A stretch of DNA of 64,000 bases from an uncultured Erysipelotrichaceae bacterium (GTDB lineage: Bacteria; Bacillota_I; Bacilli_A; RF39; UBA660): positions 22,335 to 86,334 of the forward strand of contig CACZFH010000002.1 of the NCBI GenBank assembly GCA_902780395.1, written 5' to 3'. This document shows, in pieces, positions 1,470 through 4,484 of this stretch. The position numbers and the translations under genes were made by a program. The notes below the pieces were generated by a model. That model was given only the letters and a program-made list of their open reading frames with translations, did no database searches and had not been told where the DNA came from. Numbering within the stretch: position 1 is the stretch's first letter; every line of letters starts with the position of its first letter.

Positions 1470-3746
1470 ATGGATAGAGATTTTTTTAATGACATAGTAG
1501 TAGTAAAAAGAAGTGGACAAAGAGTTAGCTTCAATCCTACTAAAGTAGCAATCGCTGTAAAAAAAGGATTTGACAGTGTATATGAAGAATATGATGAAAA
1601 AAATGTTAATAAAGTAAAAGAAAAAGTATTAGATTATATTGAAAAGAACTATAAGGATAGAAAGACAATTGGCGTAGAAGACATTCAAGATATAATTGAA
1701 GAAATCTTAAAGAAAATGAAGTATGATGAAGTATATGAATCATATAAAGGATATCGTGAAAGAAGAAATGCTTCACGTGAAGCATTTGTTGAAAAACAAC
1801 AACATAAATTTGTAAAAGCGATAGAAAGTTTAGGATTAAAAAGTGCAGCTGAAGAGAATGCTAAACGTGAAAATGCCAATGTTGATGGTGATGGACCAAT
1901 GGGTACTATGCTTCACTTTGGGTCAACTGTATCAAAAGAATTTGCTAAAGCTTATTTAATGGATGCTAAGTATGCTAGAGCTCATGATGAAGGTGCTATT
2001 CATATTCATGATTTGGATTTCTGGGCTATGGGTACTACTACTTGTACCCAAATAGATTTAAATAAATTATTTAAAAATGGTTTTTCAACAGGACATGGAT
2101 ATTTGAGAACGCCAAATTCTATTGCTTCTTATTCAGCACTTGCTGCTATTGCTATTCAGTCCAATCAAAATGAGCAACATGGTGGTCAAAGTATCCCTGC
2201 TTTCGATTATTATATGGCTCCTGGAGTATTGAAAACATTTAAAAAAGAATTTAAACAAGAATTATCAGAACTAATTGACTTTGAAGGATTTAAAGAATTC
2301 ATTAATTTCGATAAAGTAATAGAAATAATTAATAAACAAGAAAGTATTGAATTTGACTTAAATATATTTGAAGAATTTACTTCTAAAAGTAAAAAAATAA
2401 AAGAGATATTTGAAGCAGCTTATCAAAATGCTATTGATAAAACTGATAGAGCAACTTTCCAAGCCATGGAAGCCTTTATTCACAATTTAAATACCATGCA
2501 TTCAAGAGCTGGAGCACAAGTACCATTCAGTTCTGTAAACTTTGGAACAGATACTTCTCCAGAGGGAAGAATGGTTATTAAGAATTATTTATTAGCAACT
2601 GATGAAGGACTAGGACATGGTGAAACTCCAATCTTCCCAATATCTATTTTTAAAGTAAAAGAAGGAGTTAATTATAATAAAGAAGATCCTAGTTATGATT
2701 TATTTAGACTTGCTTGTCGTGTTTCTGCTAAGAGACTTTTCCCTAATTTCTCATTCTTAGATGCAAGTTTTAATAAACAATTCTTAGTACCTGGAGATTA
2801 TCAAACAGAAGTAGGATATATGGGATGTAGAACAAGAGTTCTTGCTAATGTATGTGGACCATCTGTAACACCAGGAAGAGGAAATTTGAGCTTTACGTCT
2901 ATTAATCTTCCAAGAATTGGAATTAAACACGGAATTGCTTTAGGAGAAAGACAAAAAGCTGATATGAAAGGTTTCTATAAGGAACTTGATGATATGATGG
3001 ATTTAGTTAAAGGACAATTACTTCAAAGATTTGAATGTCAATGTTCTAAATCTAAAGCAAATTTCAAATTCTTACTTGGTTCTCATGTTTGGTTAAATAG
3101 TGAAAACTTAGGACCAAAGACTAAGATTCGTACTGTATTAAAACATGGAACTTTATCTATTGGATTTATTGGTCTTGCTGAAACATTAAAAGCTTTGATT
3201 GGTGAACATCATGGAGAAAGTGAAAAAGCTCAAAAATTAGGACTTGAAATTATAAAACATATGAGAGAAAAGTGTGATGAATATACTCAAGAATATAATT
3301 TAAACTTTACTTGTCTTGCTACTCCTGCTGAAGGATTAAGTGGTAGATTTGTTGGAATTGATCGTTCTATTTACGGAAAGATTAAGGGAGTTACGGATAG
3401 AGATTATTATACTAATTCATTCCATGTACCAGTTTATTATAAGACTACTGCTAAACATAAAATGGAAGTGGAAGGAAAATATCATAAATATACAAATGCT
3501 GGACATATTTCTTATGTAGAACTTGATGGAGATACTGTTAATAATGTTGATGCATTTGAATCTGTTGTACGTATCATGCATGATAGTGATGTAGGATATG
3601 GAGCTATTAACCATCCAGTTGATCGTGATCCTGTATGTGGTTATGTAGGTGTTATTAAAGACGTTTGTCCTAGATGTGGAAGACATGAAGGTGAAGGCGT
3701 TGAAATGGAAAAAGTAAATTGTTATGACTGCGAATGTGGTCGATAA
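1470..3746 (+). CDS. nrdD: anaerobic ribonucleoside-triphosphate reductase large subunit (class III RNR), ending after the Zn-ribbon and lacking the glycyl-radical tail
   Basis: N-terminal ATP-cone-like segment (VVKRSGQRVSFNPTKV). Long NrdD-like body. C-terminal CPRCG...CYDCECG zinc ribbon, then a stop. RBS gaaggag upstream. Confidence 0.9.
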   Translation: MDRDFFNDIVVVKRSGQRVSFNPTKVAIAVKKGFDSVYEEYDEKNVNKVKEKVLDYIEKNYKDRKTIGVEDIQDIIEEILKKMKYDEVYESYKGYRERRNASREAFVEKQQHKFVKAIESLGLKSAAEENAKRENANVDGDGPMGTMLHFGSTVSKEFAKAYLMDAKYARAHDEGAIHIHDLDFWAMGTTTCTQIDLNKLFKNGFSTGHGYLRTPNSIASYSALAAIAIQSNQNEQHGGQSIPAFDYYMAPGVLKTFKKEFKQELSELIDFEGFKEFINFDKVIEIINKQESIEFDLNIFEEFTSKSKKIKEIFEAAYQNAIDKTDRATFQAMEAFIHNLNTMHSRAGAQVPFSSVNFGTDTSPEGRMVIKNYLLATDEGLGHGETPIFPISIFKVKEGVNYNKEDPSYDLFRLACRVSAKRLFPNFSFLDASFNKQFLVPGDYQTEVGYMGCRTRVLANVCGPSVTPGRGNLSFTSINLPRIGIKHGIALGERQKADMKGFYKELDDMMDLVKGQLLQRFECQCSKSKANFKFLLGSHVWLNSENLGPKTKIRTVLKHGTLSIGFIGLAETLKALIGEHHGESEKAQKLGLEIIKHMREKCDEYTQEYNLNFTCLATPAEGLSGRFVGIDRSIYGKIKGVTDRDYYTNSFHVPVYYKTTAKHKMEVEGKYHKYTNAGHISYVELDGDTVNNVDAFESVVRIMHDSDVGYGAINHPVDRDPVCGYVGVIKDVCPRCGRHEGEGVEMEKVNCYDCECGR

Positions 3747-3772
3747 AAATAAAAGAAAGAAGGAGAATTAAA

Positions 3773-3928
3773 ATGGAAGAAAATAAAAAAAGAACAAAAG
3801 TTGTTGGTGAAGGAGTAGGATTTGATAGAATTCGTAGAATTACTGGATATCTTGTAGGAACACTTGATAGATTTAACAATGCTAAAAAAGCAGAAGTTAG
3901 TGATCGTGTAACTCATGAAGCAAAGTAA
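3773..3928 (+). CDS. stand-alone glycyl-radical domain of class III RNR (51 aa)
   Basis: MEENKKRTKVVGEGVGFDRIRRITGYLVGTLDRFNNAKKAEVSDRVTHEAK carries the NrdD C-terminal RxxGY glycyl-radical motif (Gly codon 3845-3847). It has its own RBS aaggag (3760-3765), 7 nt before the ATG, and is in a different frame from nrdD. Confidence 0.75.
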   Translation: MEENKKRTKVVGEGVGFDRIRRITGYLVGTLDRFNNAKKAEVSDRVTHEAK

Positions 3929-4484
3929 TGAAACAATTCGTTTAGCCGCTGATTTACAAAGCGATAGTATTGTTGATGGCCCAGGACTTCGTACTGTTAT
4001 TTGGACTCAAGGCTGTGGTCATCATTGCTTTGGATGTCAAAACCCTCAGACATGGGATTTTAATGGCGGAGGAGAAGTTCCTATTGAGATGGTTTTAGAA
4101 GCTATAGATGAATTAGAGTATCAGACTGGAATTACTTTCAGTGGAGGAGATCCAATGTATCAACCTGAAGCTTGTAATGAAATTGCAGATTATTGCAAGA
4201 AAAAAGGATATAATATTTGGTGCTATACAGGTTTTACTTTTGAAGAAATAATGAAACTAAGCAAAAAAAAACCAATTTATCTAGACTTTCTTTCTAATAT
4301 AGATGTCTTAGTAGATGGCAGATTTGTCCAAGAAGAATTGGATTTATCAATCTTATTCAGAGGATCTAGAAACCAACGTCTAATTGATGTACAAAAGACG
4401 TTAAAAGAAGGAAAAATTGTTTTATTTGATGAACATACTTATAATGAAATTGAATCCTTCCACAGAAAACCAATATATGTCTAA
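3915..4484 (+). CDS. nrdG: anaerobic ribonucleotide reductase activating protein (radical SAM)
   Basis: IVDGPGLRTVIWTQGCGHHCFGCQNP contains the CxxxCxxC motif typical of NrdG. Located directly downstream of nrdD. Confidence 0.9.
   Translation: MKQSNETIRLAADLQSDSIVDGPGLRTVIWTQGCGHHCFGCQNPQTWDFNGGGEVPIEMVLEAIDELEYQTGITFSGGDPMYQPEACNEIADYCKKKGYNIWCYTGFTFEEIMKLSKKKPIYLDFLSNIDVLVDGRFVQEELDLSILFRGSRNQRLIDVQKTLKEGKIVLFDEHTYNEIESFHRKPIYV

Follow-up and report, generated by a model that had tools for sequence, protein, structure and literature searches.

A 64,000-nucleotide (nt) stretch of DNA from an uncultured Erysipelotrichaceae bacterium (contig CACZFH010000002.1, positions 22,335 to 86,334; G+C content 27.5%; hereafter the window, with its first letter as position 1) carries a class III ribonucleotide reductase (RNR) locus in which the catalytic subunit NrdD is encoded in two pieces, a 758-amino-acid (aa) core and a 51-aa protein that bears the glycyl-radical loop. 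The genes lie in the order nrdD core, small gene and nrdG, in an operon layout with no terminator-like site at the junctions among the three. Class III RNR serves in textbooks as the example of an enzyme that stores its glycyl radical on the very chain that uses it. We consider it very probable, judging from the sequences, that the locus encodes a functional class III RNR of two polypeptides, i.e. an obligate two-chain NrdD in which the loop would be docked non-covalently and activated by NrdG. The two-gene enzyme is widespread and apparently undescribed in print; no published description of a split NrdD, or of spare parts or autonomous glycyl-radical cofactors acting with RNR, was found in a search that had subscription-only papers and RNRdb outside its reach. 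The features of the locus are the following.

1470–3746, forward strand: nrdD core gene, 758 aa, with ATP-cone (aa 9–100), NxN flap, alpha/beta barrel, thiyl-radical Cys loop and Zn ribbon
1866–1892, forward strand: NxN flap RENANVDGD, inside the nrdD core
2820–2837, forward strand: thiyl-radical Cys loop MGCRTR, inside the nrdD core
3621–3677, forward strand: Zn-ribbon segment DRDPVCGY...CPRC, the last conserved core element, aligning to the Zn site of P. copri NrdD
3678–3743, forward strand: C-terminal tail of the core, GRHEGEGVEMEKVNCYDCECGR, consisting of the first copy of the duplicated segment and a variable Cys-rich end
3687–3716, forward strand: first copy of that segment, EGEGVEMEKV, in the core tail
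3720–3743, forward strand: Cys-rich stretch CYDCECGR at the core end
3747–3772, forward strand: intergenic spacer of 26 nt, with the Shine-Dalgarno sequence (SD) AAGGAG at 3760–3765, then 7 nt, then the ATG at 3773
3773–3928, forward strand: small glycyl-radical-loop gene, 51 aa, in a frame different from that of nrdD and with its own SD and ATG
3803–3832, forward strand: second copy of the segment, VGEGVGFDRI, in the small gene
3833–3850, forward strand: RRITGY motif, in the small gene
3845–3847, forward strand: codon of the putative radical Gly25 (assigned by motif), in the small gene
3915–4484, forward strand: nrdG, radical S-adenosylmethionine (SAM) activase, 189 aa, assigned by TIGR02491 and overlapping the small gene by 14 nt

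As the original prediction had held, NrdD stops after its Zn ribbon without the radical motif: the product ends in ...CPRCGRHEGEGVEMEKVNCYDCECGR followed by TAA (the same C-terminal stretch can also be given as ...DVCPRCGRHEGEGVEMEKVNCYDCECGR-TAA), the stop at 3746 comes 22 residues past the CPRC of the ribbon, and the glycyl-radical loop RxxGY is absent from the barrel polypeptide. The motif does lie in an open reading frame (ORF) downstream in another frame, at a distance of 26 nt rather than the 27 nt first claimed, and this ORF, with the translation MEENKKRTKVVGEGVGFDRIRRITGYLVGTLDRFNNAKKAEVSDRVTHEAK, has the length of 51 aa, the AAGGAG at 7-nt spacing and the ATG that had been ascribed to it. 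Both family profiles break exactly at the boundary between the core and the small gene. Pfam NRDD (PF13597) matches the core with its positions 1–532 (616 bits) and stops there, the remaining 533–562 of its 562 positions matching the small ORF, and NCBIfam PRK07111 matches the core with positions 4–714 (1005 bits, cut-off 764) and the small ORF with positions 711–744. The core also has an ATP-cone Pfam match. Similarly, in alignments with P. copri NrdD (PDB 8p23), residues 8–708 of the chain are covered by the core (607 bits) and residues 707–738 by the small ORF (35.7 bits), which places the Zn site ahead of the break point, as part of the core, and the glycine loop with the C-terminal tail behind it, as the small protein. 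The small ORF matched PF13597 only, with no match to PF01228, the glycyl-radical domain of pyruvate formate-lyase (PFL), at E-values up to 0.1.

Apart from the missing loop, the residues expected of a working NrdD are in place on the core. The GCRTR Cys loop, the second active-site Cys (in TTTC), the NxN flap and the Zn ligands are intact and invariant; MGCRTR aligns with the Cys loop of the T4 and P. copri enzymes and is invariant among 58 aligned sequences, as are C723, C733, P734, C736, G737 and R738 (numbered after L070, the first sequence of that alignment, A1). By sequence alone, the first ligand position of the Zn ribbon is Asp, not Cys, in this NrdD subfamily. L070 is a congener whose core is 83% identical to that of the window and whose two ORFs are in frame, which allowed them to be modelled as a pseudo-fusion by AlphaFold2 with the two stops read as Gly. 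Its core has a mean predicted local distance difference test score (pLDDT) of 84, and the model reached Foldseek template modelling (TM) scores of up to 0.89–0.93 against P. copri NrdD, with 0.89 to PDB entry 8p2s. The third gene scores 146.8 bits against TIGR02491 (cut-off 126.1). In nearly all loci of the family the nrdG junction falls between -14 and +17 nt, two automatic start calls having given -50 and +135, and NrdG is about 165–190 aa long, with a C-terminal extension common to the split and fused family members; no difference that would point to a specialisation for split systems was found in comparison with the NrdG beside fused family members.

The arrangement is not peculiar to the window allele. 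Eleven of the 24 congeners sampled have the split paralogue, which with the window genome gives 12 loci, 12 of 12 being split. When the small ORF was run as a six-frame probe against 400 genomes of the class, 8 fused loci and 19 more split ones turned up, the latter from at least 14 further genera of the family. The original prediction had proposed to compare the nrdD loci of relatives; this comparison found the same layout of stop, SD and ATG throughout the 31 split loci, which represent at least 15 genera within one family, and upholds the placing of the radical glycine on an autonomous 51-aa product. All 31 have an ATG preceded by an SD with 4–6 of 6 matches to AGGAGG. The spacer ranges from -1 to 49 nt and is conserved neither in length nor in sequence, the frame relations 0, +1 and +2 occur in roughly equal numbers, and the stop may be TAA, TAG or TGA. 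The ratio of nonsynonymous to synonymous substitution rates (dN/dS; pairwise, Nei-Gojobori, dS about 1) is 0.15 for the small ORF (39 codons) and 0.14 for the last 124 codons of the core, as compared with 0.35 for the core tail (the first 13 codons past the CPRC motif). By this measure, purifying selection acts on the small gene as it does on the core. Chance is far from sufficient to explain a layout that recurs, with independent frames and spacers, at 31 loci of the family and at 58 of the 80 loci that come from named genomes.

The scan of named genomes, with one genome per species, gave 58 split, 10 fused and 12 unresolved cases among these 80 loci. The split carriers include the cultured organisms Butyricicoccus porcorum BB10, Agathobaculum hominis M2, Desulfovibrio falkowii 13CB8C and Succinivibrio dextrinosolvens DSM 3072, as well as metagenome-assembled genomes (MAGs) labelled Mogibacterium, Oscillospiraceae, Lachnospiraceae, Bilophila and Anaerobiospirillum; most of those found are gut-associated anaerobes, and the closest named relatives of the window locus are gut MAGs labelled Bacilli, Erysipelotrichaceae or Tenericutes. 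The share of split forms varies. Among 400 genomes sampled from the class that contains B. porcorum, 115 carry an NrdD of this subfamily and about 11 of these are split, as compared with 19 of 20 carriers among 121 genomes sampled from the family that contains D. falkowii. As judged from these sequences, the arrangement marks a large NrdD clade in Bacilli, Clostridia, Desulfovibrionaceae, Succinivibrionaceae and at least one phage. Out of 8000 scored stand-alone candidates of 28–89 aa, 7998 are homologues of the small protein; those listed are mostly 50–52 aa long, and 72 of the best 120 of the 7998 have exactly 51 aa. An exact-match search for the small proteins of congeners found two among the best 120 listed, neither of them in frame with its core. 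Public records label the small peptide either as a hypothetical protein or as anaerobic ribonucleoside-triphosphate reductase. For annotation, this means that the peptide passes as hypothetical or carries the name of the full enzyme, while the core seems truncated and can be mistaken for a pseudogene.

How the two chains might work together can be envisioned from the single-chain enzymes, in which the loop must leave the barrel for activation. The 758-aa core would supply the ATP-cone, the substrate barrel, the thiyl-radical Cys loop and the Zn ribbon, and the 51-aa protein would supply only the buried glycine loop and a short C-terminal surface tail. The peptide would bind the core non-covalently, in such a manner that Gly25 comes to lie beside C453, the catalytic Cys of the core. 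With SAM, NrdG would abstract the hydrogen of Gly25, either on the free peptide or on a flipped-out loop, and catalysis would then proceed as in single-chain NrdD. We infer the non-covalent assembly and the activation in trans from the gene sequences, and likewise a benefit such as the cheap replacement of an oxygen-cleaved peptide. The published data on P. copri NrdD describe the glycine loop as mobile, and the cryo-electron microscopy work ties this mobility to regulation by ATP and dATP.

That the split enzyme is active is supported indirectly, by genomes in which nothing else was detected. Neither PF02867 (the large subunit of class I and II RNR) nor another NrdD was found in B. porcorum, in S. 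dextrinosolvens or in 10 genomes of the family that are 94–98% complete, which leaves the split enzyme as the sole RNR detected in those 12 genomes. Any of those organisms that synthesises its own deoxyribonucleotides must have an active split enzyme. Several points limit the two-chain reading. Expression, assembly and activity are predicted here from the gene sequences. The argument from a sole RNR relies on two Pfam models, which an atypical RNR could escape, and species with small genomes might rely on deoxynucleoside salvage. In the AlphaFold2 model of the L070 pseudo-fusion the glycine loop (residues 789–797) has a pLDDT below 50, as it does in the naturally fused control L114, modelled with the same 58-row alignment, where the whole glycine domain is below 50; the low score speaks neither for nor against docking. 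Moreover, the window genome has a second nrdD, fused, of about 730 aa and with an RRTCGY motif, followed by its own 166-aa nrdG (contig C34, 8000–14000, locus L069). This fused NrdD is 32% identical to the split core over the 201 C-terminal residues compared, and its type is present in nearly all congeners, while the split paralogue is present in only about half. With a fused NrdD–NrdG operon on C34, the split enzyme is not demonstrably essential in the window genome.

That second operon is also an argument for regarding the split nrdD as a decaying pseudogene, with the fused C34 paralogue doing the work, and it is joined by the presence of the split paralogue in only 11 of 24 congeners besides the window genome. 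We consider this highly improbable, given that the small ORF is under purifying selection equal to that on the core, that no other lesions were found, the catalytic residues being invariant and an SD and ATG present in every locus, and that no RNR besides the split one was detected in many relatives and two cultured species. The original prediction had named two ways in which it could fail, namely relatives that are all fused beside a pseudogene allele in the window, and an indel that breaks one continuous ORF. The relatives turned out to be split and under purifying selection, which disposes of the former. As to the latter, a sequencing or assembly error has in its favour that the window comes from a draft assembly of 73 contigs. 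With three frame relations and varying spacers among the 31 loci, no single indel can explain the split; a fused frame would require the loss of the stop and of the entire SD and ATG spacer, the 22-residue core tail and the 10-residue leader of the small protein have no counterpart in fused enzymes, and 31 independent assemblies share the layout in different frames, as do isolates, including the 3.3-Mb contig of D. falkowii. The chance of such an error is practically negligible. A fused NrdD could still be made from two ORFs by recoding, i.e. frameshifting or stop read-through, or by protein splicing, and a few relatives do have both ORFs in frame with a single stop between them (in L031, a TAG followed by 15 nt). 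Here too the variability speaks against it: the three frame relations are about equally frequent, there are one to several stops of three kinds, the spacer is not conserved and a strong SD and ATG are always there. For splicing, no intein blocks were found, and the tail has only about 20 and the leader 10–25 residues. Recoding, an intron and an intein were accordingly rejected on the variability of frames and stops and on the 26-nt spacer, and we regard this explanation as extremely improbable.

A further proposal concerns what the split might be good for. The small protein could be an exchangeable radical-bearing part that is activated by NrdG off the enzyme, cleaved by oxygen at Gly25, released and replaced, at a loss of 51 residues as compared with about 800. 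It would plausibly be an addition to the two-chain model that gives it adaptive value, not an alternative that excludes it. It is established that oxygen cuts glycyl-radical enzymes at the radical glycine and that GrcA rescues PFL so cleaved (PMC13450708, PMC8683613). The carriers found here are mostly gut-associated anaerobes, and some have extra small genes: three orphans in D. falkowii (one flanked by genes for a baseplate and a tail fibre, the other two with neighbours matching phage families), one in S. dextrinosolvens, and two to three in other Desulfovibrionaceae. A phage of Eggerthella, EL753P1, has a small loop gene besides its nrdD core, which likewise keeps the proposal open. A related orphan family of 90–100 aa is found beside fused nrdD or overlapping a desulfoferrodoxin gene. 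On the other side, the window has a single small gene, translationally coupled in an operon, as would be expected of a stoichiometric subunit. We therefore hold this proposal to be possible but doubtful. Its widest form, in which the NrdD-type loop peptide would be a free, exchangeable protein radical cofactor, the first outside PFL, made, activated, consumed and replaced independently of the 88-kDa core, with the chromosomal, prophage and phage extra copies and the orphan 90–100-aa proteins as trans-acting spares, seems to us unlikely.

The comparison of split and fused sequences indicates how the two-chain NrdD arose. Fused relatives have a single segment, reading CPxCxRxExDGVKFERI-RRITGY, in the region of the break. 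In split cores the pattern is CPxCGRxEGEGVxxEK(I/L/V), with a variable tail after it, and in the small proteins it is M...K.VGEGVGFERI-RRITGY, i.e. a segment of about 10 residues is found on both chains (EGEGVxxEKV on the core and VGEGVGFDRI on the small protein). When the pre-motif segment of the small protein was sought across the whole core of about 760 aa, the best ungapped 10-mer match fell exactly 3 residues past the Zn CxxC in 21 of the 31 loci, which gives the duplication statistical support. One such segment on each chain, single in fused relatives, points to a tandem duplication between the Zn ribbon and the glycine loop of a fused ancestor. The stop, SD and ATG would then have evolved between the duplicated copies, one copy being left to each half. 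A maximum-likelihood tree built from the cores places 29 of the 31 split rows together in a clade with 30 members, with 2–4 state changes for the labels, and the split forms are by this tree essentially one clade within the family. 'Long' fused forms of 817–843 aa were considered as pre-split intermediates and rejected, as they have a single longer linker and no duplication. One locus, L052 (genome G382, same family), has a fused NrdD, CPNCGRHEDDEPFERIRRITGY, and lies inside the split clade with strong support; a deletion between the repeats may have re-fused it, or it may have been acquired by horizontal transfer. The Cys-rich end of the core was likewise considered as a conserved redox or metal tail. 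CYDCECGR was rejected in that role, such an end being present in most relatives and absent in L035, L039, L041 and L045. Where present it takes the form CC, CxC or CxxC, and L031 and L035 have a Cys pair at the C-terminus of the small protein. From these sequences, the Cys-rich end could be a facultative metal or redox site.

Compared with single-chain NrdD and its NrdG (P. copri, PDB 8p23 and 8p2s; phage T4; E. coli), the window locus has the same ATP-cone, NxN flap, barrel, Cys loop and Zn ribbon and an adjacent nrdG, and the RxxGY loop and C-terminal tail of the single-chain enzymes align residue for residue with the small ORF. It differs in that the glycine loop and tail are a separate translation product, and in that the core has an extra 22-residue tail, the small protein a 10-residue leader, and the segment of about 10 residues occurs twice. 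The analogy with GrcA/YfiD drawn in the original prediction stands in part. Like GrcA/YfiD of E. coli and Y06I of phage T4, the window peptide is a small stand-alone glycyl-radical-loop protein and, by prediction, a substrate of a radical-SAM activase. Unlike them, it is homologous to the NrdD loop (PF13597) and not to the PFL loop (PF01228), and the large subunit that it belongs to lacks such a loop, which makes the peptide a regular, obligate subunit and not a spare.

Catalytic subunits in two pieces have precedents in other RNR classes, among them NrdA of Aeromonas phage Aeh1, which is split by mobE. NrdJa/NrdJb, the class II RNR of Pseudomonas aeruginosa, is reported to have a split catalytic subunit (PMC9669993). 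In both, as in the window, the gene of the catalytic subunit lies in two adjacent ORFs whose products must reassemble. They belong to another RNR class with another break point, and are analogues rather than members of the present group; the radical cofactor is not the part that is separated, whereas in the window it is the radical-storage element that is split off, and there is no mobile endonuclease between the halves. Spare-part proteins are, according to a 2026 review, known only for formate-lyases (PMC13450708). By its sequence, the natural two-chain form implies that NrdD can receive its radical loop in trans, and it offers a ready-made system for studying how NrdG reaches the glycine and how the loop enters and leaves the barrel, and for asking whether glycyl-radical enzymes other than PFL have replaceable radical parts. 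For several species of gut-associated anaerobes, this concerns the only RNR detected.

Upstream of nrdD, positions 1119–1469 form a 350-nt non-coding leader that is very AT-rich. Outside the split operons, stand-alone loop genes of several kinds were observed. An orphan gene of about 90–100 aa (L058–L068 and L154–L156, from the same class and from Clostridia) combines an N-terminal domain of about 50 aa without a Pfam match with an NrdD-type glycine loop that is 70–85% identical to residues 15–49 of the window peptide. Its host genomes encode a fused NrdD as well. The orphan gene lies between the fused nrdD and nrdG in three Clostridia, with a likely nrdR next in two of them, and overlaps the gene of desulfoferrodoxin (superoxide reductase) by 4 nt in three Bacilli. 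By sequence and context, this family has the look of a genuine spare part of the GrcA type that serves class III RNR.

The extra small genes of D. falkowii (L157, L158 and L159) and the one of S. dextrinosolvens (L160) stand alone, distant from the split nrdD operon. In D. falkowii, the gene next to the tail fibre gene has a baseplate wedge gene on its other side, and the phage gene families matched by the neighbours of the other two are of unknown function. Eggerthella phage EL753P1 (L163, OP172808.1, 3027–11169) has an nrdD with an intein-like insertion directly after the catalytic MGC and with a tail of the split type (CPQCHRKEFEAVPEE...). This nrdD is followed by a 102-aa ORF without a Pfam match and then by a small glycine-loop gene, which in the record is frameshifted inside RRI/TGY.

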